From Methanococcus maripaludis (GTDB lineage: Archaea; AGJL01; Methanococci; Methanococcales; Methanococcaceae): 32,000 nt of DNA. The position numbers and the translations under genes are program-made. Each line of letters opens with the position of its first letter. The stretch's first letter is position 1. Shown here piece by piece: positions 1 through 23,616 of the stretch. The stretch covers positions 630,001 to 662,000 of the forward strand of contig NZ_CP026606.1 of the NCBI RefSeq assembly GCF_002945325.1, written 5' to 3'. Under the pieces are notes generated by a model. It ran no database searches, was not told where the DNA came from, and was given only the letters and a program-made list of their open reading frames with translations.

Positions 1-1825
1 CCTGATCGTCAAGTCCATAGTAATAAAGTTCTGCAATTTGGACCCAGTCCTTGGCTTGTGATTCATAATACCATGCTTTATTTTTTCCCTCTATAATTGA
101 ATCCGTATTAGTTAAAGAAATAGCAGTTAACGAATCAATTGCCTTTTGGTAGTAATCAATAGCTTTTTGGTAAGCATTTTCCGAGTCCGTGTCATCTGCA
201 AAATCTCTGTTACTTTCAAGTTCTGCAATTTTTGACAGATAGTCCGCTACATCCCCCTCAAACATTGCCTCTGTTTGTTCTTTTTCTGATGCGGTGAAAT
301 CCCCATCTGCAAGGAAACTATCTATCAATTTTGAGTGGTCTGTAATTACGAAAACATAATTTGACCTAATTGTTATTCGAGGCTTTGAAATAGCCCATAC
401 TGGAAAAGACCTATCAGGATTATCTTCGGTTTGATATATTCTTCCTGAAACTAAAAGGAATGGATATATAGCGACTGTATCCTCATCTGAGTTATAGTCG
501 AGGATCGTGTTAATTACTCCAACCTTTGTAAGGTCCGGTAAAATTCCATCTGATTTTGAATCTGTTGAAATTGTTGAAGTTCCATCTGCATGATAATTAA
601 TTGCAACTAATCTGTAAGATACATTTTGAATTTTCATATCAGTTGAATAAGTATCAAAATATTCAGGATAACCGATAATAGTTACAGAATACCCGGCAGG
701 ATTGTTTAATTCATGAATCATCGAGGATTTAATAGTCATAACAATGTTTGAAGTAGCACCGTTTGCATCGGCCTTAAAAGCAAACATTTCGTCATCGTAT
801 TGATCCCTATATTCAGAACCTAAACCGCCCTCTTTTCCTTTGTGGTCCACGATTCCATCAAGGATTGATTGAGTAGCAGATGTTGTATGCCTATATGAAA
901 TGTAAGATGTGTTCTTCCAGGGGTCATCTTTTCCATCATCGTCATCATCCCATCTAAGAGGCTTATCTTCTTCTTCCTCAGGGGTATGTTCCTCTAAATC
1001 CCATCGGGCCCACTCTGCGTTTTCTTTCCAAACGACTAAATTATGGTTAACTTCGGTGTATATTTCAAAATTTTCTACATCCGCAGTAACAAGAGCGTTT
1101 AAATCATTTAAATCTAAATTTCCGCCCTGAGTCATAACAGCGACTTCCGATGCGTAATCATCAGGAACTTTTAAGATTGCATCAAAAGTATGTTCCTGGT
1201 TTTCAGAAGTAATATTCAAATCAGTTAGTTCATATTTGGATACAACAGTTCCCCCTTGCATAACTTTAAAAGTTACTGAATTTATCTCAGTATGGCCGAT
1301 AACATCTATTGTATATTGATCGTCCCCATAATCGATAACATCTTCGGGGAACATTGAATCTATTGAAGGAGTTTTCACAGTTATTCTAACTGGAAAGACT
1401 GAAAAACCACCTATTTTATCAGGGGCGTTAATTACTTCTTGAACCAATCCCCCAACTTCATATCCTACACAATAATAAGAAACCATATCAGATTTTATCT
1501 CATCTAAAATCCTTTGTGTGGAGTTTGAGGCTTCGATAATTGATTGTTCCTTATCCCCCATTACCGCCTCGGCAGAGGATTGCTCGGTTTCGTTTTGTGT
1601 TCCATTAAACACAATATCTGAGGGCGTATCATCTGTTGTGTTACTTGGCGGTAAATCAACAGTATTTCCACCAGTTAACCAGTCCCATATATCAGTAAAT
1701 AAAGTTCCGGTTCCAGTTCCACCGCCATCATCTATTCCCACATATCCGGTTCCATCCGCAAATACTGAAAATGGAGAAATTAAGACCAGAAAAAGGATAA
1801 ATAAAGATTTAGTTTGTAGCTTCAT
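1..1825 (-). CDS. Secreted protein, 3'-truncated by the window edge (more than 608 aa); not in the supplied ORF track
   Basis: Hand translation of the minus strand from ATG at 1825-1823 (GGGTGG RBS 7 nt upstream) stays open to base 1. N-terminus MKLQTKSLFILFLVLISPFSVFADG is signal-peptide-like. An acidic patch reads EEHTPEEEEDKPLRWDDDDDGKDD. The start overlaps the end of the upstream ORF by 17 nt. Confidence 0.7.
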   Translation of the reverse strand, partial: MKLQTKSLFILFLVLISPFSVFADGTGYVGIDDGGGTGTGTLFTDIWDWLTGGNTVDLPPSNTTDDTPSDIVFNGTQNETEQSSAEAVMGDKEQSIIEASNSTQRILDEIKSDMVSYYCVGYEVGGLVQEVINAPDKIGGFSVFPVRITVKTPSIDSMFPEDVIDYGDDQYTIDVIGHTEINSVTFKVMQGGTVVSKYELTDLNITSENQEHTFDAILKVPDDYASEVAVMTQGGNLDLNDLNALVTADVENFEIYTEVNHNLVVWKENAEWARWDLEEHTPEEEEDKPLRWDDDDDGKDDPWKNTSYISYRHTTSATQSILDGIVDHKGKEGGLGSEYRDQYDDEMFAFKADANGATSNIVMTIKSSMIHELNNPAGYSVTIIGYPEYFDTYSTDMKIQNVSYRLVAINYHADGTSTISTDSKSDGILPDLTKVGVINTILDYNSDEDTVAIYPFLLVSGRIYQTEDNPDRSFPVWAISKPRITIRSNYVFVITDHSKLIDSFLADGDFTASEKEQTEAMFEGDVADYLSKIAELESNRDFADDTDSENAYQKAIDYYQKAIDSLTAISLTNTDSIIEGKNKAWYYESQAKDWVQIAELYYYGLDDQ

Positions 1826-2027
1826 CTTGTATCCACCCTAATTTAAGCGATATTTGGTATAATCCCCAAATTACGAAACCACCAAGTAGTGCAGTCAAGT
1901 AAAAAATATTTCCTTCAAGAGTTGCAGGTCCTGAATTGTAAGATTGAGTAATAGTTACTGCATCTGCAGTAACTGAATTCATTAATAATCCAAGGCCAAG
2001 AATGAAAGTTGAAATTTTTAATCTCAT
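1809..2027 (-). CDS. Small secreted/membrane-anchored protein (72 aa)
   Basis: Signal-like N-terminus (MRLKISTFILGLGLLMNSVTADA) and a hydrophobic segment (IFYLTALLGGFVIWGLYQI). ATGA start/stop overlap with the upstream 752-aa ORF. Confidence 0.55.
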   Translation of the reverse strand: MRLKISTFILGLGLLMNSVTADAVTITQSYNSGPATLEGNIFYLTALLGGFVIWGLYQISLKLGWIQDEATN

Positions 2028-4282
2028 TTTTTTCGACCCCCTGGAATTAATGTTGAACCTCCAATAACCATGAATAAAGCTACTAATCCAACAAGTAAAG
2101 GATTATTTTTAGCCATATCGATTATTGTATCGGGACTTATTGAACCGAATGAAATTCCTGAGGGGATTAATGCAGTAATATCGAGCCCTGAAAGGTCAAC
2201 ACCACCAACAGATAAACCAGTCGAATCAATGTTCAATATTATTGATTCCTCAAGAATATTTTCATAAATACCGTTTGAATCTTTTAAATAAACTGTTGCA
2301 GTCAATAAATAAGAGTCAAATGTTAAATTTTCACCAACTGGAACTAACAAAGTTTGTGATTTTGTTACTCCTGGACTTACTGAAAATTCAGTTATTGAAG
2401 GCTCAGATAAACCATCCCCGGAAATTTCTACTTTATAGTATTGTGGCGATGTAAATAAATTCTGAATATTTACAGATAAACTGGATGCAGTCCCAGGTTT
2501 CCCAGTAATTGTAGTTTGGGAAAACAATATCGGATTTACAACCTCAATATTTAGGTAAGAATTGATTAAATCTCCCGATAGGATTCTTACCCTATAATCT
2601 CCGGTTTCTTCGAAAGTAATTTCGAAATCGTGTGATTCATAACCTGAAAATGCGTAAGAATCAGAATAAACGATATTATTCTCTGCATCTTCAACCTGAA
2701 TCATAACTAATCTATTTTCTCCTTCCGTTTCTGAAATTCTTAAATTATTTGAACCAATGTTCCATTTTGAAGGAACTGTTAAAGTTAATGGCAACTGGAC
2801 AACTTCGTACGTAAAAGACGTATCAGTTACATAACTCTGCCCTAATGTTCCATAACCCATAACACGCATTTGTAAAGCGTTTGTTCCAAGAGTTTCCCCT
2901 GACATAAATTTAATAGTAATATCTGTTGGAACTGATATATCCCCAATTAAATATCCGCCATTTACATACGGTATTTGAGTATTACTTGAATCTCTAACAT
3001 CTAATACCTCTTTTCCTGAAAGATATATCTTAGTTGAACTTGACATAGCTTTTGGGCTAATTGTTACAGTTACAGGAACCTCTGAGTTTTTGAAAGTGTT
3101 AATATCTGTTGGAACTTGTATTGAATACATAACAGATAACGGATAAAACCGGATATCTAATGAATCAAATGATTCATCAATATTTAATGTTCGAGTTTCA
3201 TTCCAGTAGCCTGATTTAACGAATTTAAATAAGTGTGAACCTCTTGGCAATTGCACGGTTTGCCCATTTGAAACCGTATTAACTAATTCATCATCGATAT
3301 ACATCGATACACTCGCTAATCCGCCCTCTGAATTTGTTAATGTTAATTCAACAGGTAAATGAGTTGTTTCCATATCTACTGAAACCGTCAAATCAGAACC
3401 ATCTACAATTACAGTTTGGGTTACGTTATAATAACCATCTTTTAAGAAAGTCAAATAATGCGTTCCGTCAGTCAAATAAGCAGTACCTAAATTATCAAAC
3501 GTACCGAGGGAATTTCCAGAATCAAATACTTCAATTCCATCTACATTTGAATCAAATGTAGCCACATACCGAGCAGGAGGCGTATATATTTCAGATATAG
3601 TAAAATCAGTCCTATTGACTGCGGAGTAAGTACTGTAATCTACATAATCAAATAATACTATTGAAGTAGTTGTTTTTTGATATCCATGTAAGTTAGTCCA
3701 AGCAATTCTCATAGTGCTATCCGCAGGAAAAACAGCCGAATCATAATAATAAGTCGTTGATTCTCCACCCGCATAAAACAACTGAACCCCATTAAGCGAT
3801 ATTTTCAGATAATTTCCACCGGAATAATCAGAATGGACATAAGAATACATATAACCATATTGAGTTTTGGAAGTATCAATATCAAAATCTTGATACATAT
3901 CTGACGCATAAGGAGTGTAAGCCTGACCGTCAATTAATAATACCGTCATAGGAGTTAATATTCCATCAATATATACATCAAAATCCCCATTAAAAGGAAT
4001 AACCTTATTTGTATAAGATACAACGGAACAGAAACGAGCCAAATCGTTTTTAGATGCAAAATACATTTTTGGGCCGTCAATTCCAGTTATGGAAGGTGCA
4101 TAAACACCAAAATCATAAGCGGACATTGTAGAATTTATCAAATCCCAAGTAAGTGTATCATCAGCAAATAAAACATAATAACCAGATGTAGACCCAGTTT
4201 CGGGAATAGTACACGTTACCGCAGAAACAGAACCAATACACCCGATTAAGAGCAATAAAAAAAGGAAAAAAGATTTTTTCAT
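2024..4282 (-). CDS. Large secreted, C-terminally membrane-anchored surface protein with PEGA/CarboxypepD_reg-like repeats (752 aa)
   Basis: Signal-like MKKSFFLFLLLLIGCIGSVSA. C-terminal anchor LLVGLVALFMVIGGSTLIPGGRKK. Two adjacent repeats, GTHYLTFLKDGYYNVTQTV and GSHLFKFVKSGYWNETRTL (DNA about 3143-3562). Many N-x-S/T sequons. Confidence 0.85.
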   Translation of the reverse strand: MKKSFFLFLLLLIGCIGSVSAVTCTIPETGSTSGYYVLFADDTLTWDLINSTMSAYDFGVYAPSITGIDGPKMYFASKNDLARFCSVVSYTNKVIPFNGDFDVYIDGILTPMTVLLIDGQAYTPYASDMYQDFDIDTSKTQYGYMYSYVHSDYSGGNYLKISLNGVQLFYAGGESTTYYYDSAVFPADSTMRIAWTNLHGYQKTTTSIVLFDYVDYSTYSAVNRTDFTISEIYTPPARYVATFDSNVDGIEVFDSGNSLGTFDNLGTAYLTDGTHYLTFLKDGYYNVTQTVIVDGSDLTVSVDMETTHLPVELTLTNSEGGLASVSMYIDDELVNTVSNGQTVQLPRGSHLFKFVKSGYWNETRTLNIDESFDSLDIRFYPLSVMYSIQVPTDINTFKNSEVPVTVTISPKAMSSSTKIYLSGKEVLDVRDSSNTQIPYVNGGYLIGDISVPTDITIKFMSGETLGTNALQMRVMGYGTLGQSYVTDTSFTYEVVQLPLTLTVPSKWNIGSNNLRISETEGENRLVMIQVEDAENNIVYSDSYAFSGYESHDFEITFEETGDYRVRILSGDLINSYLNIEVVNPILFSQTTITGKPGTASSLSVNIQNLFTSPQYYKVEISGDGLSEPSITEFSVSPGVTKSQTLLVPVGENLTFDSYLLTATVYLKDSNGIYENILEESIILNIDSTGLSVGGVDLSGLDITALIPSGISFGSISPDTIIDMAKNNPLLVGLVALFMVIGGSTLIPGGRKK

Positions 4283-4294
4283 GTGTTTTCCCCC

Positions 4295-4879
4295 TTATTC
4301 TTTAAATATAATTCCGCAGAACCAAGCACCGATCACTAATAAGCCTATCCAAATGTAATTTTCATACATATTGAAAAATCGAGTAAATTGTTCGGTTAAT
4401 CCATCACCGGTGATAATTCCAACAATAGCCCCATCATCTGAGGAGTCATCTGTTGTATCATCGGTAGTGTTTGTATCATCTAAAGTTGAATCTGTTGTAT
4501 TAGTATCATCAGTAGTTGTATTCTCTTCTACGGTTTCGTTAACCGTATCATCAGTAGTGTTAGTTTCTTCGGTAGTGTTAGTGTCTTCTACGGTTTCGTT
4601 AACAACCGTTTCAATCATAGTTATTGATATTGAGGAATTTTCATCGATAATCTCGAATGTATCCGTTAAATTATCGTATCCATCTTTAACAAAAGTTAAA
4701 GTTACGTTTCCAGCATCTAAAGTGATAGTTTCTGAATTGTTAAAAACTCCAATTGACGCACCATCTTTTATGATGTCTACTTCATCCACGTTTGACGTGA
4801 AAGGAATTGCTAAAGCAGATACAGAACCTACCAATAGCAAAAGCAGTATTCCAAAAATACCAAATTTTTTTACGTTCAT
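4295..4879 (-). CDS. Secreted, C-terminally anchored protein with one PEGA-like domain plus a Thr/Asn/Asp-rich stalk (194 aa)
   Basis: Signal-like MNVKKFGIFGILLLLLVGSVSALA. Motif GNVTLTFVKDGYDNLTDTF is the same as in the 752-aa protein. Low-complexity stretch NTTEETNTTDDT... C-terminal TM segment IWIGLLVIGAWFCGIIF. Confidence 0.8.
   Translation of the reverse strand: MNVKKFGIFGILLLLLVGSVSALAIPFTSNVDEVDIIKDGASIGVFNNSETITLDAGNVTLTFVKDGYDNLTDTFEIIDENSSISITMIETVVNETVEDTNTTEETNTTDDTVNETVEENTTTDDTNTTDSTLDDTNTTDDTTDDSSDDGAIVGIITGDGLTEQFTRFFNMYENYIWIGLLVIGAWFCGIIFKE
4524..4603. repeat. Exact 20-nt repeat (tcttctacggtttcgttaac) at 60-nt spacing inside the stalk-coding region
   Basis: Copies read directly at 4524-4543 and 4584-4603. 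They encode the NETVE(E/D) starts of two roughly 20-aa Thr/Asn-rich units. Confidence 0.8.
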
Positions 4880-4890
4880 ATAACCACCAG

Positions 4891-5265
4891 TTAATCATTA
4901 AGAGCTAATACAATTATTGCAAGTGCATTTACGACCAAAACAGCCTTTTGGAGTGTTGGGTCTGATAAATAGCCTATTGAACCGGCTAAGAATGAATATG
5001 CCAAAAATGAAACTGCACAAACTAAAATAGAGCCAACCTCTTGGGTTTGGTAACTGTATTTGTGGGCATTTCTTCTACCTGAAAGGAGAACCATTGCAAG
5101 ACCTAAAGGTCCGACTATTGTATAGAATGTTTGGCTAACGAATTGAATGTTTAATAACATCATTTTGCCAACCAAACCAAGCATAAAGAGAAAACCGCCC
5201 GTCATTTCGTAACGGTCAATCCTTTTTCCAGCTATAAAGATTTCATCACTCATTTTATCACTCAA
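4891..5265 (-). CDS. Small polytopic membrane protein (124 aa)
   Basis: Several hydrophobic helices (GGFLFMLGLVGKMMLL, IVGPLGLAMVLL, ILVCAVSFLAYSFLAG, AVLVVNALAIIVLAL). 8-nt overlap with the upstream ORF. Confidence 0.7.
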   Translation of the reverse strand: MSDKMSDEIFIAGKRIDRYEMTGGFLFMLGLVGKMMLLNIQFVSQTFYTIVGPLGLAMVLLSGRRNAHKYSYQTQEVGSILVCAVSFLAYSFLAGSIGYLSDPTLQKAVLVVNALAIIVLALND

Positions 5266-5644
5266 ATTTCAAAATTGTTAAGCAAACAACGTCAATTATT
5301 AAATATATCATTCCAGTTCCTGAAACGAGTAATCCACCAATTAAAGGAATCTGTCCGATTGTTGCGGTAATTATTGCTTCCGAAAGAGTCAATAATAGAA
5401 CAATCATAGCACAAATTTTTACAGGACCTATTCGTTCAGTTGTTCCAAAGAGAATAGCCCCGATGACAACGCAAGAGGCCCAGCCAAATGTTGAATAAGC
5501 CGATGCAACCAAAGGACCAACACCGGGAATAAAACTCAAGAGATTAATTCCTTGACCTGAAAAAGTAATTACAATCCCAGCGAAATAGAGAAGTAAAGTT
5601 CCTTTTTCTTCGTCAATAAGTCCAAAAAGTTTTTCCTGAGTCAT
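5258..5644 (-). CDS. Small polytopic membrane protein (128 aa)
   Basis: Hydrophobic throughout (LLLYFAGIVITF, WASCVVIGAILFG, ICAMIVLLLTL, GGLLVSGTGMIYLIIDVVCL). Tightly packed in the operon. Confidence 0.7.
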   Translation of the reverse strand: MTQEKLFGLIDEEKGTLLLYFAGIVITFSGQGINLLSFIPGVGPLVASAYSTFGWASCVVIGAILFGTTERIGPVKICAMIVLLLTLSEAIITATIGQIPLIGGLLVSGTGMIYLIIDVVCLTILKFE

Positions 5645-5653
5645 GATATCATC

Positions 5654-5863
5654 TTATTTGTATTTCGAGTATAACAGGTATCCAACAACAGCCAATAATA
5701 TCATAACGGCAAGACTCACGTTATTTGGTTCCCACATACTGAAAAATGGGAACTGCAACAGATAGTTAATAATCTGCAATTTTAAATCTGCAAATGGGGT
5801 AAAACACCCAGCTAACACAAGCAGGACAACTCCGGCAAGTGCGTATTCCTCTTTTTTAGTCAT
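5654..5863 (-). CDS. Small membrane protein (69 aa)
   Basis: Two hydrophobic helices. ATGA overlap with the upstream ORF. Confidence 0.6.
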   Translation of the reverse strand: MTKKEEYALAGVVLLVLAGCFTPFADLKLQIINYLLQFPFFSMWEPNNVSLAVMILLAVVGYLLYSKYK

Positions 5864-6087
5864 TTAACCACCAGTTTACCAGTTGGATTTTTAAAAGCAT
5901 ACATAAAGGCAAGAACAACCAAAATTACCGCCCCATATGTCGAAAGTACCTCATACGGAATCCCTGAGAGTAGCGGAAAGCAACTCACAAGTAATGCAGT
6001 AAATTTTTGTTGAACAAGCGAAGTGTTTATCAAAATTCCCCCAGCAAGGAGAAAAATTGAAACCTCGTTAAAATCTACTTTTGACAC
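5860..6087 (-). CDS. Small membrane protein (75 aa), first gene of the surface-module operon
   Basis: GTG start with AGGTG 8 nt upstream. Two or three hydrophobic helices. Preceded by a 195-bp intergenic gap. Confidence 0.6.
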   Translation of the reverse strand: MSKVDFNEVSIFLLAGGILINTSLVQQKFTALLVSCFPLLSGIPYEVLSTYGAVILVVLAFMYAFKNPTGKLVVK

Positions 6088-6232
6088 ACAATTTACACCT
6101 AAAAAATTTTTAAGGACTAAGAAATTTGAGTTCAGGCGATGATTGTTAGTGTCTTAGTCCCATAGTAATAATAATGTAAAAATAGCCTTTTATAGGTCAG
6201 TTTAAACCAGTAAAACAGAGTTTTAGAAATTT

Positions 6233-6282
6233 AGAAAAAAAGAAATTCAGAAAAACAGAAAAACAGAAAAAAAGAAATACTT
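6233..6282 (-). terminator. Oligo-T tract (minus strand) downstream of the NTPase gene, including 3 tandem CAGAAAAA units
   Basis: The plus strand reads cagaaaaacagaaaaacagaaaaaaag (6248 onward), which gives T-runs on the coding strand immediately after the stop at 6283. Archaeal terminators are oligo-T tracts. Confidence 0.4.
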
Positions 6283-6942
6283 TTATTTCTTCTTAGAACC
6301 TAATTTAGCGGATAATTCGACCTTTATATTATCAACAATACGATCGAACTCATCACTTCTGGTATTATGTTCTTTATTTTTCATTTCCATAAAGTATTCA
6401 AAATCAGGGGCCTTAACTGAAAGATTGAATATAGGGGTCATAATCGTTCCTTTTCTTAAAATAGTTGCAGGAATAAAATATTCCCTTATTCTCTTATCTA
6501 CACCCTTTTCTTTTGGAGTTGTAGCAAAAACTAAAGGAATCTCAGTTCTAATGAACTGTAAAAGTTTTCCAAATTCTTTAGAAACTTTTGTTCCAAAATC
6601 CCTGGCATCAAACCATTTTCCGATATCTTCAATAACTAACATGTCGCATCTTCTAAGATCCGCAGGAGATAAAGCTAATACTGTATCATAACCTAATTTA
6701 TCAAAATAATTACATAAAGCAATAGAGTGAGTTGTTTTCCATGAACCTCTTCGTCCAGTTAGTAAAAAGGCAGTATGCCCTTTTATTGGCTTATTCATTT
6801 TCAATATCATTTCGGGGTCTTTTTCCATAATAGAAGGCTTTGCTAAACTATAATCAAATCCCAAAATATTATCTAACTGATGCGAATCTTTGTTACCAAA
6901 ATCATAACTTCCAAACAGGCCCATGTTAACTATAAAACTCAC
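6283..6942 (-). CDS. P-loop NTPase (219 aa)
   Basis: Walker A-like LLTGRRGSWKTT and Walker B-like CDMLVIEDIG. GTG start; an alternative ATG lies at 6924. Confidence 0.8.
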   Translation of the reverse strand: MSFIVNMGLFGSYDFGNKDSHQLDNILGFDYSLAKPSIMEKDPEMILKMNKPIKGHTAFLLTGRRGSWKTTHSIALCNYFDKLGYDTVLALSPADLRRCDMLVIEDIGKWFDARDFGTKVSKEFGKLLQFIRTEIPLVFATTPKEKGVDKRIREYFIPATILRKGTIMTPIFNLSVKAPDFEYFMEMKNKEHNTRSDEFDRIVDNIKVELSAKLGSKKK

Positions 6943-6945
6943 CTT

Positions 6946-7218
6946 TTACTCTTCTTTATTCATACTAAATTCTTCAAGCATTGCTTGAAACTCTTGCCAG
7001 GTTTTTTCATCCCCAATCATTGAAAGGAGAAGAGGATATTTCACAGGTTCAAAAGCAACAATCCTTTTAGCCCTTTGAACGAGCCAGTATCCATTTAATT
7101 TAGGATTACATCTCGCCATAAAGAACATGAGAACATCGGTATTAGGTGTTAGATTCTCCGGACCCACTATCTGATTGATTAGTTTCCTCATTTCCAGGTC
7201 CATCTCTGGATTCATCAT
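6946..7218 (-). CDS. Hypothetical protein (90 aa)
   Basis: ORF track entry. Its 5' end overlaps the upstream ORF by up to 77 nt, so the true start may be an internal Met. The stop is 3 nt before the NTPase start. Confidence 0.55.
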   Translation of the reverse strand: MMNPEMDLEMRKLINQIVGPENLTPNTDVLMFFMARCNPKLNGYWLVQRAKRIVAFEPVKYPLLLSMIGDEKTWQEFQAMLEEFSMNKEE

Positions 7219-8650
7219 CTATTTTCACATCCATCGATTTATTTTGTTCTTCGGTTTTTTTCAGTAAATCCTTAATATTTCGCATTGCAAGAGGATATAC
7301 ATCTCTCAAGACTTGTTCCATTGCAAGTGCCATAAGTTCTTGAGCTTCAACTCCCATAAGACCGGCTTTTTCATAGTACATACCAGCCCATTTTTTGACT
7401 GATTCGGTTATTTTTCCTAAGTTATCAGATAAAAACACGCATTCCGCAGTCGTTTTATCCATAATACAGGATTTATTTATCCAAATCTCACCGGTTACTT
7501 TGCCTACTTTTCCCATGAATAGAGTTTTTACCCACCTAAATAAATTATAAACCGTTTCTCCTATCGATTTAGATTGTTTAAGTGCTTGTTCAGATTCTTC
7601 AAGGTAATCTATAACTTGATAATCAGTTATAATTTTACATTTTCCTTTATAGTCTTTTAGAGTAGAAACGAAGTTCCATTCATCGACTTCATCATATTCT
7701 ATATGCTTGTAAGTCTTATCGTGCCAAAGCACTCTTTTTTTCTCTCCATCTTGTTCGTATGGAACAGAAATATCGTACACGGTTTTATTTGCAAAATCAA
7801 TACGAATATATGTTAGTAGCTTCTTAGTGTGGACGTAATAAGCCACCCGCGATGCAAGATACGGTATTAGAAAGAGATAGAAGTTATAATAAGACCAGAT
7901 GTATTTAAAATCCCAGGCAAATTTTAACCAGGGAATAGTTAAAGATTTTGAATTAAATACAATAAAATCTTTCCAGGCAGTTGCTTCAAATGGAAAACCA
8001 TACTTATAAAACAAGAATAATAACGCCAATCCCACATTTAAACGAGTAATAGGTAGGATTGATTGTTTAAACCTGATTAATAAGTTTTTTTCGATATATT
8101 TGTTTTTTACATGAAACATGACTAAAACAAACAAGATAATCGAAAGGATTGCACGGTCCCAGCCCATTTTTGAAATGGCCCCTTTTGTTGCATATAACAA
8201 CTCATCGGGTAAATTTCCAGACTGTAAAACATCTTCAATTTGACAGAATTTATTATCATAGAGGAAAATATAATTTATATATCCGTAACTTGTGTATGGA
8301 TTTGTAAAATTATATTTGTGAGTTCCTGTATCTATTCTAACCTCTGAAAACCCCGATGCACCTCTTGTGTATTTGTACTTATATCCATCATAGACAGATA
8401 CCCACTTAGGATTTCCTGAATTAGTTATTTCAAATATCAAGGTCTTAGAAGTCTTATTATAGTAATAAGAATCTATTACCATATCAGAAAATGAAGTTAA
8501 ACTTCCTTTTGTCATATATTCCGCAGTTAACGGATCCGCAGGTTCTATATTTTCCGCATTCACAAAAGGAATGCAGCAAATAATTAATAACAATATTATG
8601 ATTTTATTCGGCATATGTTTCATAAAACAACCTACCATCGTTATTCTCAA
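7142..8650 (-). CDS. Large membrane protein with an extracytoplasmic N-domain, TM helices and a cytoplasmic C-domain (about 490-502 aa)
   Basis: Signal-like KIIILLLIICCIPFVNA. TM helices AILSIILFVLVMF, LNVGLALLFLFYKYGF and NFYLFLIPYLASRVAYYV. The likely start is MKHM or MPNK, not the first Met in the track. Confidence 0.75.
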   Translation of the reverse strand: MRITMVGCFMKHMPNKIIILLLIICCIPFVNAENIEPADPLTAEYMTKGSLTSFSDMVIDSYYYNKTSKTLIFEITNSGNPKWVSVYDGYKYKYTRGASGFSEVRIDTGTHKYNFTNPYTSYGYINYIFLYDNKFCQIEDVLQSGNLPDELLYATKGAISKMGWDRAILSIILFVLVMFHVKNKYIEKNLLIRFKQSILPITRLNVGLALLFLFYKYGFPFEATAWKDFIVFNSKSLTIPWLKFAWDFKYIWSYYNFYLFLIPYLASRVAYYVHTKKLLTYIRIDFANKTVYDISVPYEQDGEKKRVLWHDKTYKHIEYDEVDEWNFVSTLKDYKGKCKIITDYQVIDYLEESEQALKQSKSIGETVYNLFRWVKTLFMGKVGKVTGEIWINKSCIMDKTTAECVFLSDNLGKITESVKKWAGMYYEKAGLMGVEAQELMALAMEQVLRDVYPLAMRNIKDLLKKTEEQNKSMDVKIDDESRDGPGNEETNQSDSGSGESNT

Positions 8651-8948
8651 AATCTCTCATTATTTCGGAAGAATGAACAGAAACAAGTACATACTGAGGA
8701 ATATTATGTTTTGTAAGAAGTTTAACCTTTAAAGCAAGATGCTTTTTTCTTTTAGTTTGAACTCTTAATCCAAATATACCGCATTTCCAACCTTTTTTTA
8801 AAAGATACTCTTTTAAATCAACTTTTTCTATAACTTCACTCGCTCTCTGTTTAGCAATTTCGACTAAATCCTTATTTTTGACACCGTAAGTAATGTCTGA
8901 ATGGATTATCAGACCGGGGTCTACCTTTGAGGTTTCTGCAATTATCAC
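8604..8948 (-). CDS. Hypothetical protein (114 aa)
   Basis: ORF track entry, co-directional and tightly packed. No motif recognised. Confidence 0.6.
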   Translation of the reverse strand: MIIAETSKVDPGLIIHSDITYGVKNKDLVEIAKQRASEVIEKVDLKEYLLKKGWKCGIFGLRVQTKRKKHLALKVKLLTKHNIPQYVLVSVHSSEIMRDFENNDGRLFYETYAE

Positions 8949-9825: not shown

Positions 9826-10067
9826 TTAAACTTCAATTCTAAATCTATCGCTCATTATCATACAATTATGATAAATTACAGTTTTTTCTTCATTATTTGC
9901 GTGAATACAAAGCCATTTACCAGTTTTACTTACAACCGCAAGGACATTTTTGTTAATTTCGCCTTTTTCTTTCAATTGCTTGATAACTGATTGTAACTCT
10001 GCATTTTCTTTAGAAAAATTTCTTTTTCGAGTTTTTTTATTTTTAAAATGTTTTTTAGCCATTTTTC
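9820..10067. repeat. 248-bp direct repeat, copy A
   Basis: Aligns base-for-base with 10666-10913 at an 846-nt offset, with about 11 mismatches by eye. Confidence 0.9.
9826..10062 (-). CDS. Hypothetical basic protein, paralogue A (78 aa)
   Basis: MAKKHFKNKKTRKRNF... Near-identical (2 aa differences) to the ORF at 10672-10908. Confidence 0.65.
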   Translation of the reverse strand: MAKKHFKNKKTRKRNFSKENAELQSVIKQLKEKGEINKNVLAVVSKTGKWLCIHANNEEKTVIYHNCMIMSDRFRIEV

Positions 10068-10665: not shown

Positions 10666-10913
10666 CACCATTTAAACTTCAATTCTAAATCTATCGCCCA
10701 TTATCATACAATTATGATAAATTACGGTTTTTTCTTCATTATTGGCATGAATACAAAGCCATTTACCAGTAGAACTCACAACAGCAAGGACATTTTTGTT
10801 AATTTCGCCTTTTTCTTTCAATTGCTTGATAACTGATTGTAACTCTGCATTTTCTTTAGAAAAATTTCTTTTTCGAGTTTTTTTATTTTTGAAATGTTTT
10901 TTAGCCATTTTTC
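10666..10913. repeat. 248-bp direct repeat, copy B
   Basis: See copy A. Confidence 0.9.
10672..10908 (-). CDS. Hypothetical basic protein, paralogue B (78 aa)
   Basis: Same length and sequence as 9826-10062 except K/S and S/G substitutions. The ATG at 10908 overlaps the stop of the 458-aa ORF. Confidence 0.65.
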   Translation of the reverse strand: MAKKHFKNKKTRKRNFSKENAELQSVIKQLKEKGEINKNVLAVVSSTGKWLCIHANNEEKTVIYHNCMIMGDRFRIEV

Positions 10914-12277
10914 GCATCCCCTAACGATTTAAAACCGATAACTTCAAACTGTTCATTTCCAATTGAAAATCTTGAATAGTCGTCAATTTTTCCACATTTT
11001 TCACAGATGTGCCGGTATTGGTGAGAATCGTAACGCATTAAAGAACCACATTCACAGCGGTAAACACCTTGATAAAATAATCTCATTCCCTGTACCGTAT
11101 CATTCCAACGGTAAACGCCTCTTTTTCCGCCCAATTCTTTTTCAAGTGGTTCAATCAAATTATTAGCCATTAATCGCTCTCGAAGTCCTTTTGTGTGGAA
11201 ATCAAAAGTTAATGAATAAGCTTTTCCAAAAAGTATAGTTTTCGCAAGGTCAAGGGAAACGTGCCACCATTCAGCACATGTTTGAACAACACTTTCCCCT
11301 TTCAACTGCAACGGCTTTAAATTCTCAAAATTGTACCCAAAATGTTTATATGACTGGTGAACTCCGTGTATTATAGAATGGTAAAGATGTTCAGGGTCTC
11401 CAACAAGCCACTTTCTAGAAATATCTCCATTCCACGTAAACTCGTGCCTGTTGATTCCTGCCCCTTTTTGGTATCTTTTCCACTGTATCGGGTTTCTTGC
11501 ACTTGGTGTAGTATAATATTCAGTTTGAGTTAAATCTCCGTACACTTTGAGGTGGTTCGTCTTTCGTTCATCCGTAATAAACTGGAATTGTAAAGATTCG
11601 CAATTTAACCATTCAATATCAATTTCAGCACTTTGAACGGAAACATCCACGAGACTGTAAAGGTCTTCCATTTTACCGAGTTTTCTTGCAAGCTCTAAAA
11701 CATCGAGTCCAAAAGCATTTTTCAGGTAATGAATATATTCGAACTTGAATTCTTCGATTCTTTCGCAGAACAACCTACAATACTCTTTTAAGAGAGTTCC
11801 TTTGTCGTCTTCTTCAACCCATATCGGAAGAACATTATCATCCCGAAATGAATCTTCATAAGGATCGATGCCTTTTTTTAAGAGGTAAACACGGTTCATG
11901 TTAAAATAACCCCTTGCAATATGGGGGCTTTTCATGGATATTGCGATTGATGCAACCTCTTTTCCGTCCAAGTCTTCTTCTACTGGTTTTCCGCTTCTCA
12001 TTTCAGTTGGAACTTGAAAATGAAATGTCGCAGTCTTTTTAGTTCCGCTTTTTTCCACCATTCTTTTAACAAACTGGGGAAATCTGTGGTTTAAATCTTC
12101 ATAAATGTCTTTTCTAAAGTGGTTTCCAAGAATCGACCAGAGAAAAGGAATTTGTAAAGTTATGTAAACTCGATCAATCAGGATTCTTCTTTTCGGGTTT
12201 TCAACGTACTTATCGGAAAGAGGACAGAACGTTTCATACATATTCTCCACCGAAAACAGCTTCGATAGTTTTATCAT
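10901..12277 (-). CDS. Large hypothetical protein with a C-terminal Zn-ribbon (458 aa); candidate replication or DNA-processing protein
   Basis: C-terminal CECGSLMRYDSHQYRHICEKCGK (CxC...CxxC). It is the largest soluble protein of the element's early region. No other motif recognised. Confidence 0.8.
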   Translation of the reverse strand: MIKLSKLFSVENMYETFCPLSDKYVENPKRRILIDRVYITLQIPFLWSILGNHFRKDIYEDLNHRFPQFVKRMVEKSGTKKTATFHFQVPTEMRSGKPVEEDLDGKEVASIAISMKSPHIARGYFNMNRVYLLKKGIDPYEDSFRDDNVLPIWVEEDDKGTLLKEYCRLFCERIEEFKFEYIHYLKNAFGLDVLELARKLGKMEDLYSLVDVSVQSAEIDIEWLNCESLQFQFITDERKTNHLKVYGDLTQTEYYTTPSARNPIQWKRYQKGAGINRHEFTWNGDISRKWLVGDPEHLYHSIIHGVHQSYKHFGYNFENLKPLQLKGESVVQTCAEWWHVSLDLAKTILFGKAYSLTFDFHTKGLRERLMANNLIEPLEKELGGKRGVYRWNDTVQGMRLFYQGVYRCECGSLMRYDSHQYRHICEKCGKIDDYSRFSIGNEQFEVIGFKSLGDAKNG

Positions 12278-13705: not shown

Positions 13706-14071
13706 ATGTTCCTGAAAATTTTATCCAAATCCAATGCAAAAGAAATTTTAATGCTTTTGAACGAATATGGCGAGTTATATTTCGGGCAAATTCATAAAGA
13801 ATTAGATAAACCAAAAAGTAATTTAAGCAGAGTTATATCTGAATTACAGGAAGAAGGTCTTGTAAACAAAAGAACCGAAGAAACAGACGAAGACGGAAGA
13901 ATACCTAAGAATTATTATAGTTTAACCAATCTCGGTAAGATTGCTATTGAAATATATCAAAAAGAAGACAAAATGTTAAAAGAAAAAGAGTCTGGAAACG
14001 TAAATATCAATGTTGAAAATAATCATGGAATTATCGCAAACAATATTCAAAATTTGAACGTAAAAAAGTAA
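13706..14071 (+). CDS. Winged-helix (ArsR/PadR-like) transcriptional regulator (121 aa)
   Basis: KEILMLLNEYGELYFGQIHKELDKPKSNLSRVISELQEEGLVNKR... followed by YYSLTNLGK, giving a helix-turn-helix plus wing pattern. Confidence 0.8.
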   Translation: MFLKILSKSNAKEILMLLNEYGELYFGQIHKELDKPKSNLSRVISELQEEGLVNKRTEETDEDGRIPKNYYSLTNLGKIAIEIYQKEDKMLKEKESGNVNINVENNHGIIANNIQNLNVKK

Positions 14072-17697: not shown

Positions 17698-18720
17698 TTA
17701 AACTCTTACCTTAGAGTGAGTTTCATATTTATTTCCCGAATGTTTAGATTCCAGATAATCATCATCCAGTATTTTAATAACTGTAGCATAGTTTTTGCTA
17801 TTAATTATTAAATTATCATTCTCATCAAATTCAATTTCATCTAATTTAAATTCCGATTTTGTATCAGATATTGAATTATGATCCCAAGTTTTGTAACTTT
17901 TAGTATTCAATACCGTAGCAAATTTTTTAGTAAGATCTTTATTACGTTTGGATAAACTTACCAGTACTTCAAGATTATCTTTATCGATAATTTTTTGCTC
18001 AACCAATTTATCTTTTTTATCATCAATTTCTTTTTTGTATCCTTCATGGAAATCAAAAAATAATTCAATACCATTTTTGTTAAATACATACATAATTTCA
18101 GAGATATCTTCAGAAGCCATCTCTTTACCCTTATAAATCATTCCATCAAATTTATCTTCAAGTGCAAAAATACTATCTTCGATTTTATCGAATTTACCAT
18201 TATTTCTATTAAATACCATGTTTAAAGTGCCTTTTCCAAGCAATTTAAGAGGAGAATGTTTTTTAATAAATATCAAATTTTTAGATATTTCTTTTTTGTT
18301 ATCAAAGATATCAATGGTTACAATATATCCCCAAATTTTTTTTATGTTTTTTAATGCATTGCTATTTAAAAACTCGGGATCCCCGTAAGTTTTATCATAA
18401 ATATCTTCAAAATGGGGAATATCTTCTGCAGACATGACTTCAATAACTTTTTTATCATATTTCGCCATTGGAGAATATTTTGGGTAAAAATATTCATCAC
18501 CACATCGAATTCCCACTTCAAGTTGGGCAATTTTCAATAATTCCTGCTCTATTGCGTGATTTGAATTAAATTCTGTTCTCCAAATTTTATGTGTTATCAA
18601 TTCTTTCTTTTTAGTTCGTTCTACAAAATTCAAAGTTATATTACCCAAATTAAGATTTTCGTCTTTTAACATCTTGTATATATCAGGCATTTTTAATATA
18701 GTAGCGACATTTATTTCCAT
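17698..18720 (-). CDS. Cytoplasmic 340-aa protein, second gene of a two-gene operon (KwaB/DUF4868-like by architecture only)
   Basis: ORF track entry. Starts 3 nt after the stop of the 4-TM gene. Lys/Glu/Asp-rich. No catalytic motif recognised. Confidence 0.7.
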   Translation of the reverse strand: MEINVATILKMPDIYKMLKDENLNLGNITLNFVERTKKKELITHKIWRTEFNSNHAIEQELLKIAQLEVGIRCGDEYFYPKYSPMAKYDKKVIEVMSAEDIPHFEDIYDKTYGDPEFLNSNALKNIKKIWGYIVTIDIFDNKKEISKNLIFIKKHSPLKLLGKGTLNMVFNRNNGKFDKIEDSIFALEDKFDGMIYKGKEMASEDISEIMYVFNKNGIELFFDFHEGYKKEIDDKKDKLVEQKIIDKDNLEVLVSLSKRNKDLTKKFATVLNTKSYKTWDHNSISDTKSEFKLDEIEFDENDNLIINSKNYATVIKILDDDYLESKHSGNKYETHSKVRV

Positions 18721-19521: not shown

Positions 19522-20451
19522 TTATCGAGGACCGATAAATCTATCCCCATTATAGTGTATCATGTGATCAGGATTTTCTGAAATCCAAACTTCAGTATCC
19601 CATGCAATATCTGCAACATATTTTTTGAAAGTAGCTTTATCCCTAAAGCAGCTCACATATATTTTTCCACACTTACAGTCTTCAAGCATTTCTTCAAGTT
19701 CATAGTACCGTTTATCTGAAACTGGGCCATGAGAAGTAACTGCTTCAATTAAATAAATCCAGTTATTCTTTTCATCATACAAAACAACATCTGGAAGCTT
19801 ATCATGTTTAGTCATTGGAATTCCAAGCTTTTCAAGTTCTTCATCCAATTTATAAAGGTTTTTATGTGCGGTATCCCCAACATAAAGAACTTTTGAACCA
19901 CCTGCAAATCTAGGTCCAAATTCTTCAATAATTTCTTTTTGTAATTCATTATGTTCTCCAGAAGAAAATTCAAGTTCCGTATCATCAACTTTAACTGAAA
20001 TTTTATGAATTTCCCTAATTCCCTGATATTTTTCAGAAAGTGAAGTTTTATTCTCTAAAAACCATTCAACAGACTTTTCAAAATCATCAGTTTCGTATGT
20101 TTTTAAAACTTCTAAAAATTCAGGAGTTAAGGAATAAACTGTTTTACCACTGTTTGTAGGTCTTTTTGGATCATCTCGATTCCTTTCAACAATTCCAGCA
20201 TGTTCAAACTGGTGTATTGTCTGCCGCCTTATTGTTTCCCTGCTATTTTCAGCATAAGTATATCCATAATTTTCAGAAATAAACAATAAAATATCATGAA
20301 TTCTAACTAAATTATCTTCTGAATCTTTCCAATCACTGTTTTCTTGGATATTTGCAAGTGCTAAAAGAGTATATGCACTTCTATTATTTTGCTGCTTCAC
20401 TGGAAGCTCAAATTTCTTTAAAATAGTTAAAGCTTCGTCTAACTTTCCCAT
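19522..20451 (-). CDS. Type II restriction endonuclease, BsuBI/PstI-like (309 aa from ATG 20451; alternative TTG at 20466)
   Basis: Lies immediately downstream of the methyltransferase. PD...E core LPDVVLYDEKNNWIYLIEAVTSHGPV. N-terminal wHTH-like region. The size matches R.PstI-class enzymes. Confidence 0.6.
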   Translation of the reverse strand: MGKLDEALTILKKFELPVKQQNNRSAYTLLALANIQENSDWKDSEDNLVRIHDILLFISENYGYTYAENSRETIRRQTIHQFEHAGIVERNRDDPKRPTNSGKTVYSLTPEFLEVLKTYETDDFEKSVEWFLENKTSLSEKYQGIREIHKISVKVDDTELEFSSGEHNELQKEIIEEFGPRFAGGSKVLYVGDTAHKNLYKLDEELEKLGIPMTKHDKLPDVVLYDEKNNWIYLIEAVTSHGPVSDKRYYELEEMLEDCKCGKIYVSCFRDKATFKKYVADIAWDTEVWISENPDHMIHYNGDRFIGPR

Positions 20452-20468
20452 ACTACCCTTCCACAAAA

Positions 20469-21977
20469 TTAGATATTAAATATATTATTGACAATATCAT
20501 TACATTTATCAACACTTAAATCATTTTCTTTTAGAATTAAGTCTCCAATTCTGACAATGAGTTCTTTTTCGGGAAGAGGCATTGAATTTACTTCTGTAGC
20601 ATTTACCTGAGTAGATCCATTTACAATTCTATAATATTTATCTAAGATATCACAATTAAAGAGAGCATAGAGACCAAATAATTCGTTTAATTCCATATTA
20701 CCTGATTCTTTCACAATATAATTAAGATGATTTTCAAATCCAATCTGTGGATAATTAAATTCTTTTGAAGAATAAATTGCAGCTTGAAGCCTTCTTTTCT
20801 CTTCTTTTGAAGTAAACCGTTTCAATAATAAATAATCCTTATTTTTCAAAAGTAACTTTTTAGATTCAGAATTATTCAAAATATACGGGGGTTTTCCGTC
20901 CTTTGTAACTGGAAATCTTATTAATCCGTCATTAAAATTATGTAACCACAAAAGAGGAACAGTTTCATTCGAGGGTTCATTTTTTAAATATTCTAATGAT
21001 CGAAAATCGACTACAGGCCCGGTTTTTAACTTATATCCTAGTTTAACTAAATTATACTTCCAGTTTGACATTAAATTCATGATTTTTACGTCTTCTTCGT
21101 TTGTAGGTAACAATATGAATTTATTTTCATTTTTCGTTATTACTGTATCATAAGGCATGTAAATTTGAAAAATATTTTTGGATAAATCAGAATCTGTACT
21201 TTCTGAAATACACATCATATCTTCATTTAATCTTGATTTTACAGCTTTTAAAATAATTGTTTCCTGCAATACCTGATCGTTTCCAAACACGTTTTTCCTT
21301 GAAACAAACAAATGTATTCGAGAAATATTTACATTTTCAAGGAACCATGTTCTAAATTTTTTAAAATAAAGACCCGATGTAAAGCTTCTTGGATTAATAA
21401 ATATGAACTCTCCATTTTCCTTTAACAATTTTAAAGCCATTGCCATGAATAAAAAATAAATATTGGGCTGACCGTGCACAATAGAATTCATAGCTACAGC
21501 TTCTTCGCAAGACTTGCTTATTTTTTTGTAAGGTGGATTAGAGATTACAAGATCGTAACGCCCAACAGAGTCTGAATTCCAGTTATCTACATTCAATGTT
21601 ACAAAATTGCCATGTATAATTTTATATGTGAATTTTATGGGCGAATTTTCTAATTTATGTTTAATATATTCCATTGATTTAGTTAAAATGGGTAAAACAT
21701 CAGAATCTACTTCATAAAGATCAATATGGAGTCTTTTTAAATTTTTATGGGTTTTAAATTTATCAACAAGTGCTGTCGCTAAAATACCGGTGCCTGAACC
21801 ACAATCTAAAATATTTAATTCTTCAAAATTTTCATAGTCGCCGGATAAACTAGCCATAAAGTCGGCAACAGCTGCAGGTGTAAAAAATTGGCCTATTTTC
21901 TTCCTATCTTTCTTAGACTTCTTTTCCAAATATTTATTCGTGTATTCTTGGACTTCATTTACAAGTGATTCCTGCAT
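20469..21977 (-). CDS. N6-adenine DNA methyltransferase, gamma class (M.PstI/Eco57I-like, 502 aa)
   Basis: SAM motif ILDCGSGTGIL precedes the catalytic motif DLVISNPPYKK. FFTP near the N-terminus. Confidence 0.9.
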   Translation of the reverse strand: MQESLVNEVQEYTNKYLEKKSKKDRKKIGQFFTPAAVADFMASLSGDYENFEELNILDCGSGTGILATALVDKFKTHKNLKRLHIDLYEVDSDVLPILTKSMEYIKHKLENSPIKFTYKIIHGNFVTLNVDNWNSDSVGRYDLVISNPPYKKISKSCEEAVAMNSIVHGQPNIYFLFMAMALKLLKENGEFIFINPRSFTSGLYFKKFRTWFLENVNISRIHLFVSRKNVFGNDQVLQETIILKAVKSRLNEDMMCISESTDSDLSKNIFQIYMPYDTVITKNENKFILLPTNEEDVKIMNLMSNWKYNLVKLGYKLKTGPVVDFRSLEYLKNEPSNETVPLLWLHNFNDGLIRFPVTKDGKPPYILNNSESKKLLLKNKDYLLLKRFTSKEEKRRLQAAIYSSKEFNYPQIGFENHLNYIVKESGNMELNELFGLYALFNCDILDKYYRIVNGSTQVNATEVNSMPLPEKELIVRIGDLILKENDLSVDKCNDIVNNIFNI

Positions 21978-23528: not shown

Positions 23529-23616
23529 ACTCGATGATGATTGTCATCCCTGCTGACTTTAATTTGTAGTATTAGTTGCAAATTAAAGAAATGATGAATA
23601 CAGGGTTACTGAGAGT
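23529..23616 (+). ncRNA. C/D-box sRNA-like RNA with an internal hairpin (double K-turn candidate)
   Basis: C box ATGATGA at 23534-23540. 12-nt spacer. D' CTGA at 23553-23556. 10-bp stem CTTTAATTTG/CAAATTAAAG (23557-66 and 23579-88). C' ATGATGA at 23591-97. 11-nt spacer. D CTGA at 23609-12. Terminal ACTC/GAGT pairing. TATA-like ttatatat at 23503-10. T-run after 23620. Confidence 0.5.

Follow-up and report, generated by a model that had tools for sequence, protein, structure and literature searches.

A 32,000-nt stretch of Methanococcus maripaludis DNA, called the window below, carries part of a 27-kb integrated mobile element, and positions 1-8650 of the window hold a block of genes for membrane and surface proteins. 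We tentatively read this block, at a probability that we put somewhat short of even, as the late, membrane and surface half of the element, a virus-like module that would form particles and recognize the host. The nine gene families K-J-I-H-F-E-D-C-A of the block are syntenic between elements whose proteins are 23-40% identical, which is a new point, as are the placement of the small nucleoside triphosphatase (NTPase) I, by sequence comparison, in the fusellovirus B251 / His1 ORF16 family of AAA+ ATPases rather than in the t26-14p family, and the hypervariability of the N-terminal ~300 amino acids (aa) of the large surface protein C, a stretch that has been swapped with canonical pT26-2 elements. 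The 27-kb element as a whole is the functional unit; it is a pT26-2-like integrative element with 5p and 6p alone of the pT26-2 core, an integrase, a repeat of ~20 bp and host genes on both sides. Elements of this type have already been named, and in outline this one is not new.

The gene block and its mobile context

All 11 genes of positions 1-8650 lie on the minus strand and are transcribed in the order K-J-I-H-G-F-E-D-C-B-A; our letters run in reverse order of transcription, K coming first and A last (Table 1). The initial annotation of this DNA, made from the sequence without database searches, had noted overlapping starts and stops, and these are confirmed. Neighboring genes overlap by 4 nt between H and G, 8 nt between F and E, 4 nt between C and B and 17 nt between B and A. 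The K/J overlap of ~50-77 nt is set by the choice of the J start. Topology was assigned throughout with a Kyte-Doolittle hydropathy scan at a threshold of 1.6. The scan recovered the signal-like N-termini that had been noted in four proteins (A, B, C and D), as well as C-terminal hydrophobic anchors in D, C and A and a second hydrophobic segment in B.

C starts with a signal peptide and ends in a C-terminal transmembrane anchor; it includes the variable stretch of ~300 aa at the N-terminus, two PEGA repeats and additional beta-sandwich domains. A has a signal-like N-terminus, a pair of T26-6p Ig-like domains and a helical domain; its C-terminal transmembrane anchor falls outside the window. 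Its full length of 686 aa was read from L001:8025-10085, on one of the longer contigs that bear the identical element (L001-L003); A runs 78 aa past the window edge, and the region marked initially was too short. The acidic stalk of D contains 11 N-x-S/T sequons against ~3.6 expected. K opens with a signal-like N-terminus; its hydrophobic segments fall between residues 161 and 215, as a putative block of transmembrane helices, and it also has a small ectodomain of beta-sandwich type, a beta/coiled-coil domain on the cytoplasmic side and an acidic tail.

The motif G-x-[HV]-x-[LF]-x-F-[LV]-K-[DS]-G-Y-x-N-x-T, which had been reported three times across two proteins, occurs in exactly three copies, at residue 57 of D and at residues 273 and 348 of C. 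Residues 244-304 of C score above the Pfam PEGA cutoff (21.9 versus 20.8 bits), which bears out the earlier PEGA/carboxypeptidase-regulatory-like assignment, and D aligns to the PEGA part of C. All three copies are repeats of a single homologous domain and not a chance recurrence.

The block sits inside a mobile element. A 19-bp perfect direct repeat, CTCGATGATGATTGTCATC, bounds 27,044 bp and encloses an integrase gene. The left copy (attL) is found on contig L002, 3,514 bases left of window base 1, between an ArdC-like gene and a DNA ligase gene, and beyond it are host genes. Relatives of the element occupy other chromosomal sites in other strains, and in other strains the window site is empty of the cluster. 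A search of 5.8 billion proteins found homologues of C in Methanococcus and in metagenome records only, and all of the contexts examined have the look of mobile elements. The named homologues are from Methanococcus maripaludis or Methanococcus sp., and the host Mtd protein groups with Methanococcus proteins; a host among Methanobacteriales, which would have carried pT26-2 into a new order, was considered at first and rejected on these grounds. In GTDB species-representative genomes, direct and alignment-based scans found no relative of C, K or I.

These observations bear on the most conventional explanation, an ordinary host cluster for a surface layer (S-layer) or adhesin that stands near an integrase by chance. 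Archaeal surface proteins often consist of strings of PEGA or Ig-like beta-sandwich domains, flanked by a signal peptide and a C-terminal anchor, and the structural matches of C are generic. The AlphaFold2 model of C, at a predicted local distance difference test (pLDDT) value of 81, is mostly beta-strand and forms a string of beta-sandwich domains. A Foldseek comparison, which had been proposed as a check and was run on this model, returned generic multi-Ig proteins (complement, alpha-2-macroglobulin, phage tail/baseplate proteins) at TM-scores of 0.10-0.18, and the top 50 PDB matches were all of this kind. The direct repeats around the cluster, its empty site in other strains and its presence at other sites, and the confinement of C homologues to Methanococcus and metagenomes, with none in species-representative genomes, all speak against this explanation, which we consider essentially excluded. 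The initial annotation had likewise preferred a mobile element to an ordinary host S-layer locus.

The order K-J-I-H-F-E-D-C-A is found in the window, in L005 (M. maripaludis JACHEC01), in L006 (M. maripaludis Mic1c10) and in L017 (Methanococcus voltae), and in L014 (GCA_054002535) as far as the contig reaches. Proteins of L005 are 80-100% identical to those of the window except for C, and those of L006 are 25-40% identical; across the window, L006 and L017 identity is 23-40% overall. That the order has been kept despite this divergence argues for one functional unit. The E and F families are kept in every relative examined, the H family is present in L006, L014 and L017 (with basic C-terminal tails in L006 and L017), and B is restricted to the lineage of the window and L005. 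In L014 a 98-aa protein encoded two genes upstream of K matches the 114-aa protein that directly precedes K in the window. In L017 a gene for a 753-aa KAP-family NTPase (L017:10559-12820, minus strand) is inserted after I on the opposite strand and breaks the module.

The two halves of the element can part company. In L005 and L031 the K-A block is 80-100% identical to that of the window except for C, and the 452-aa Rep-like protein is 24% identical; these copies are integrated elsewhere, beside Fer4/CCG genes. The window, L014 and L017 have in common the integrase (51-56% identity), the 458-aa protein (56-59%), the regulator and the three small genes upstream of the 458-aa gene. A ~27.1-kb contig of a close relative was considered as a possible episome; the sequence retrieved, the 26.7-kb L031, is an integrated copy.

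Homologies of C, A and I

A matches the Pfam families T26-6p_Ig-like_dom_2 (1.8e-16) and T26-6p_Ig-like_dom (1.4e-12), PDB entry 2wb7 (PT26-6P; 9.6e-11) and, by BLASTP, the t26-6p homologue of pMEFER01 (1.3e-31). This free plasmid of Methanocaldococcus fervens (NC_013157) was also the sole tblastn match of A among PLSDB plasmids. C matches the PEGA protein of pMEFER01, a t26-5p homologue (BLASTP, 5e-35), and the 5p proteins of L008 and L012, canonical pT26-2 elements of the same host species, M. maripaludis (1e-58 and 1e-82). The two large proteins of the block are homologues of t26-5p and t26-6p, so that the initial description of a type "not obviously described" does not stand. The type itself was named in 2025, when a "pT26-2-like integrative element" was described in strains Mic1c10, X1 and JJ (FEMS Microbes; PMC12667266). 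The supplement of that paper lists two of the seven core proteins, an integrase, restriction-modification genes, a 20-bp direct repeat and matches of clustered regularly interspaced short palindromic repeat (CRISPR) spacers; M. maripaludis spacers match genes of a related element. The elements of Mic1c10, X1 and JJ resemble the present one in their tyrosine integrase, short direct repeat (20 bp there, 19 bp here), restriction-modification cargo and flanking conserved host genes. The Mic1c10 element is our L006 and has the whole K-J-I-H-F-E-D-C-A order in common with the window; it differs in integration site, in the 25-40% identity of its proteins and in cargo, which is type I restriction-modification and a helicase there and Kiwa plus type II restriction-modification here. 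The accessible text says nothing on the conservation of K-J-I-H-F-E, on the family to which the ATPase is akin or on the variability at the N-terminus of C.

The plasmid pT26-2 comes from Thermococcus, and its family, spread over Thermococcales and Methanococcales, has seven core genes, t26-5p, 6p, 7p, 11p, 13p, 14p and 15p (PMC2926602, PMC6972569), and the structure of t26-6p has been solved (PDB 2WB7). The 5p/6p pair has been recorded from mobile elements only (PMC6972569), and Soler et al. 2010 noted M. maripaludis copies of the pair without the other core genes (PMC2926602). The present element encodes two of the seven, t26-5p and t26-6p; BLASTP and iterative searches with hidden Markov models (HMMs) against the proteins of pMEFER01, L008 and L012 found no counterpart of t26-7p, 11p, 13p, 14p or 15p. 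It resembles the family in its adjacent 5p and 6p homologues in the same order, its many small membrane proteins, its integrative nature and its host order. It differs in lacking the other core genes, among them the HerA/VirB4-like ATPase gene t26-14p, in ending right past 6p (two genes on the opposite strand, then attL), in its replication module, and in an attachment site of 19 bp outside tRNA genes, compared with 53-58 bp for most members from Methanococcales (table in PMC6972569). In L008 and L012 the order is 5p-6p-7p...13p-14p-15p, an arrangement different enough that the two backbones have just the 5p/6p pair in common. The pair is thus separable from the rest of the pT26-2 core, and in the present element it is accompanied by an ATPase like those of spindle-shaped viruses. 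A further context for a t26-5p-like PEGA protein, of 804 aa, was seen in L010 (Logan SRR11799808, a 14.5-kb locus on a 15.5-kb contig), where a 925-aa protein and a serine resolvase follow it; no Pfam T26-6p domain was recorded there, and the I- and K-family HMMs found no member within the locus.

Relatives of I are rare: an exhaustive search of 1.84 billion representative proteins found only 11, most of them 160-211 aa long. The best tblastn match of I among GenBank viruses, a weak one, is the DnaA-like gene of fusellovirus SMF1, and I matches PHROG 5484, "DnaA-like replication initiation protein", at 2.6e-8; eight of nine family members match it (best 3.5e-11). Profile comparison of the I family with hhalign gave 96.9% (1.8e-10) for SMF1, 94.4% for SSV1 B251 and 93.5% for His1 ORF16, and the alignments span Walker A, a shared DD-G-x-[WF]-x-K motif and the sensor region. 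In bits, the I-family HMM scored 42.6 on SMF1, 28.2 on SSV1 B251 and 24.6 on His1 ORF16, and only 14 on the t26-14p homologue of L012. Pfam nSTAND3 matches seven of nine members of the I family; among weak Pfam matches, two fusellovirus B251 proteins hit nSTAND3 and AAA, and His1 ORF16 hits AAA only. B251 is an absolute-core gene of fuselloviruses, implicated in replication or packaging (PMC9608457), and it occurs as well in pSSVx, a satellite packaged into SSV particles (PMC9608457, PMC2926602).

A metagenome scan for I yielded contigs of 1-3 kb only. On L016 (JGI 3300014887, a 5.3-kb contig) and L019, distant J- and I-family genes lie downstream of a gene for a 376-aa protein (L016) or a 220-aa protein (L019); the 376-aa protein resembles K weakly (BLASTP E-value 0.19), and on L016 the J-I genes accompany a rolling-circle Rep (REP_ORF2-G2P). 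These contexts hint at J-I pairs on much smaller elements as well.

The initial annotation had offered a virion envelope or a DNA-transfer apparatus as the function of the block, and both are retained here as live hypotheses. As an apparatus of the donor cell for DNA or protein transfer, conjugation-like or secretory, the membrane proteins and the 5p/6p pair would build an envelope-spanning structure that contacts the recipient and allows passage free of particles. Such a function was proposed for the pT26-2 core by Badel et al. 2019 (PMC6972569), and it agrees with the failure to detect a capsid-like protein here or particles of pT26-2 (PMC2926602). It also agrees with the gene, beside the module, for a polyvalent protein with ArdC-N, MPTase-PolyVal and methyltransferase domains. 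Polyvalent proteins are typical of conjugative elements, although phages have them too. The conjugation-like hypothesis is nevertheless weakened here, since the HerA/VirB4-like ATPase t26-14p and its partner t26-13p are missing. Pfam detected no relaxase, coupling protein or FtsK/HerA-type translocase, and scans of most called open reading frames of at least 74 aa in the part of the element within the window gave no translocase of VirB4/HerA/FtsK type; the sole ATPase of the module is an AAA+ protein of 170-219 aa from a virus-associated family. We consider a transfer apparatus unlikely.

The most variable part of the block is the N-terminus of C. A comparison of the window with L005 gives 89-100% identity for K, J, I, H, G, F, E, D and A, 81% for B and only 50% for C. 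Set against P0002, C shows 22-54% identity in its first 300 aa and 92-100% in the remainder. Between elements generally, the N-terminal ~300 aa show 18-54% identity, while flanking genes show 90-100%. Over its N-terminal 293 aa, C shares 48% identity with the 5p of L012, more than with its own orthologues, and in most 50-aa blocks of the first 250 aa identity to canonical 5p of the same host species is 44-64%. The N-terminal domain of C has thus been traded with the 5p of a canonical pT26-2 element. A domain that varies and is swapped between unrelated elements of one host follows the pattern expected of a receptor-binding domain.

Such variation in an exposed domain is equally compatible with an arms race at the cell surface, as would be expected if the module served lysogenic conversion, remodeling the envelope of its own carrier (adhesion, exclusion of related elements, masking of receptors) and being kept for the benefit of the host. 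The element carries further host-protective cargo in Kiwa and restriction-modification, and Badel et al. (PMC6972569) describe core genes that persist in integrated copies without replication functions, with a host benefit suggested. Lysogenic conversion leaves unexplained, however, both the strict linkage to a B251-type ATPase and to K-J across divergent elements and the restriction of the 5p/6p pair to mobile elements, and the tight operon with an ATPase argues for an assembly process. We regard it as decidedly unlikely.

A possible particle module

The block has parallels in spindle-shaped archaeal viruses. His1, SSV1 and SMF1 encode an AAA+ ATPase of the B251 / ORF16 type, and the annotated His1 genome has a DnaA-like ATPase, small proteins with two or three transmembrane segments and, following these, two proteins that each combine a signal sequence with a C-terminal anchor. 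One of the small His1 proteins, ORF21 (73 aa, two transmembrane segments), is the major capsid protein VP21, labeled "hypothetical protein" in the record. Both H (75 aa) and G (69 aa) are in the size range of VP1 and VP21 (~75-80 aa, two hydrophobic helices), and the scan found two segments in G and one in H. We treat H as a candidate particle or membrane matrix protein. The morphogenetic module of wyrdviruses likewise holds a capsid protein, an adhesin and an AAA+ ATPase, with conserved unknown genes between them (bioRxiv 10.1101/2021.07.29.453957). Without its cargo, the backbone of the element is similar in size to the genomes of His1 and SSV1 (14.5-15.5 kb), and an integrase with a temperate lifestyle is a further likeness. 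Unlike spindle-shaped viruses, the element has no detectable capsid protein of VP1/VP21 type, its adhesins are not homologous to VP4, and no virions are known.

We would picture the block as building and arming a membrane-derived transmission particle, as spindle-shaped or pleomorphic archaeal viruses do. The operon K-J-I-H-G-F-E-D-C-B-A would be expressed in a tightly coupled manner, and H, G, F and E would enter the cytoplasmic membrane and make up the particle's shell or matrix. D, C, B and A would be exported by way of their signal peptides, glycosylated, and anchored by their C-terminal helices as surface spikes or fibers. The membrane-distal, variable N-terminal ~300 aa of C would then recognize the host surface, with the elongated, t26-6p-like A as a stalk or entry device. 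The cytoplasmic domain of K would tether I to the membrane, J serving as adaptor, and I would load or hand over the DNA of the element. We infer each of these functional steps, as well as the existence of particles. The picture is consistent with the mobile context, with a t26-5p/t26-6p pair of the kind borne by mobile elements, with the conserved gene order and the family of I, and with a layout parallel to that of the His1 genome and the wyrdvirus module. The variable N-terminus of C, the excess of sequons in D and the spacer matches to a related element also speak for it.

Several results weigh against a particle. No protein of the block resembles a known major capsid protein. BLASTP and hhalign gave no significant match of H, G, F or E to SSV1 VP1/VP3 or His1 VP21, a comparison of low sensitivity as the templates are single sequences, and no PHROG turned up consistently in scans of H, F and E members. 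IMG/VR scans for C, K and I found no relative, and tblastn of I, C, A and the 458-aa protein found none in GenBank phage records beyond the one weak fusellovirus match for I. All contigs seen are integrated copies, and neither a circular nor an episomal form was found. In the canonical pT26-2 family, no virus particles were found, nor was pT26-2 DNA or any encoded protein found in vesicles (PMC2926602). B251-type ATPases are also annotated as DnaA-like replication proteins, and I could serve replication instead of assembly. Finally, topology was assigned by hydropathy alone, and the AlphaFold2 model of K, built from three sequences, is unreliable (pLDDT 38). Apart from these points, hhalign found I to B251 and ORF16 as the sole match to selected SSV1 and His1 proteins; the K, J, H, F, E and Rep-like families matched none of the 15-17 proteins selected from each virus. 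C and A gave no tblastn match to archaeal virus records and no significant PHROG match that would indicate a fusion spike of the VP4-like kind of Pleolipoviridae, and the Rep-Arvir paper mentions neither Methanococcus nor pT26-2 nor PEGA.

In a more specific form of the particle reading, these elements would be proviruses of an unrecognised family of non-tailed, membrane-containing Methanococcus viruses of spindle-shaped or pleomorphic form, with the 5p/6p pair as receptor-binding and entry device and H, F and E as new shell proteins; this is possible, and we hold it to be doubtful. Particles of this kind, should they exist, would enlarge the very small set of viruses known from Methanococcales. 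The provirus of the M. voltae A3 virus-like particle, whose DNA is 23 kb, has been assigned elsewhere, to Mvol_0498-0500 (PMC3543421). If the provirus reading is true, 5p/6p would be a portable host-entry cassette, common to virus-like backbones with a B251-type ATPase and to backbones of HerA type.

The function of the pT26-2 core has been a question since 2009-2010, despite the crystal structure of t26-6p. The present family of elements offers a natural dissection of that core, as it keeps 5p and 6p and has an ATPase of a family seen in spindle-shaped viruses in place of the HerA/VirB4-like t26-14p. M. maripaludis is among the most genetically tractable archaea, which makes the role of t26-5p and t26-6p directly testable.

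Borders, cargo and neighboring genes

The genes outside the block (Table 1) include a cargo region in which KwaA and KwaB make up a Kiwa anti-virus defense system, here carried by an archaeal mobile element. The integrase belongs to the general Pfam Phage_integrase family and has an N-terminal SAM-like domain.

Table 1. Features of the element, with window positions unless another contig is named
Feature	Position	Strand	Basis or remark
A, t26-6p-like	1..1825	-	first 608 of 686 aa in window; Pfam, PDB, BLASTP
B, 72 aa	1809..2027	-	signal-like N-terminus and one more hydrophobic segment
C, t26-5p-like type I membrane protein, 752 aa	2024..4282	-	BLASTP, Pfam PEGA, model
D, 194 aa	4295..4879	-	signal peptide, one PEGA-like domain, acidic stalk, C-terminal anchor
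E, polytopic small membrane protein, 120-124 aa	4891..5265	-	three hydrophobic segments
F, Gly-rich polytopic small membrane protein, 128 aa	5258..5644	-	overlapping segments, residues 72-128
G, 69 aa	5654..5863	-	two hydrophobic segments; specific to window/L005 lineage
H, small membrane protein, 75 aa	5860..6087	-	one segment at threshold, second stretch by eye
I, small AAA+ NTPase, 219 aa	6283..6942	-	Walker A GRRGSWKT
J, soluble protein, 81-90 aa	6946..7218	-	always between K and I; overlaps K 3' end
K, membrane protein, ~498 aa	7142..8650	-	probable ATG start at 8638
114-aa protein directly upstream of K	8604..8948	-	also in L005
458-aa protein	10901-12277	-	C-terminal CxC...CxxC zinc ribbon
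Three conserved genes, 138, 148 and 91 aa	up to 13359	-	upstream of 458-aa gene
Winged-helix regulator	13706..14071	+	divergently transcribed, kept in relatives
KwaB	17698-18720	-	Pfam 1e-18
KwaA	18724-19401	-	PADLOC 5e-26
BsuBI/PstI-type type II restriction-modification pair	19522-21977	-	cargo
Tyrosine integrase	21999-22886	-	Pfam Phage_integrase 1e-31
Integrase neighbor, 182 aa	22895-23443	-	conserved
attR, right copy of CTCGATGATGATTGTCATC	23530..23548	+	direct repeat
Polyvalent protein, 685 aa	L001:10530-12587 (~680-2740 bases left of window base 1)	- (L001)	ArdC-N, MPTase-PolyVal, methyltransferase domains

The 458-aa protein may be a replication protein, perhaps of a new initiator family. 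Its family is found, whole or in part, in all relatives with enough upstream sequence (window, L005, L006, L014 and L017); it has no Pfam match, and tblastn against GenBank phages and PLSDB plasmids was empty. The polyvalent protein and a 72-aa partner are encoded between A and attL on the strand opposite to A, and both are kept in L005 and L031.

Two near-identical paralogues of 78 and 81 aa lie on the minus strand at 9826-10062 and 10672-10917. Both are 97% identical to L006:2727-2963 of the otherwise divergent Mic1c10 element, which suggests recent exchange or duplication.

The right copy of the repeat coincides with the 5' end of a probable C/D-box small RNA (sRNA) gene at 23530-23612 on the plus strand. 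Its parts are, in order, a C box GATGATGA, the guide TTGTCATCCCTG, a D' box CTGA, a hairpin, a C' box ATGATGA and a D box CTGA. Compared with Rfam sR55 it scores 24 bits, under the gathering score of 35 (E-value 6e-4 in a 301-nt search), and the guide is identical. With attR placed in this way, the target of integration would be an sRNA gene and not a tRNA gene, and the AT-rich DNA of the element would come to lie upstream of that gene.

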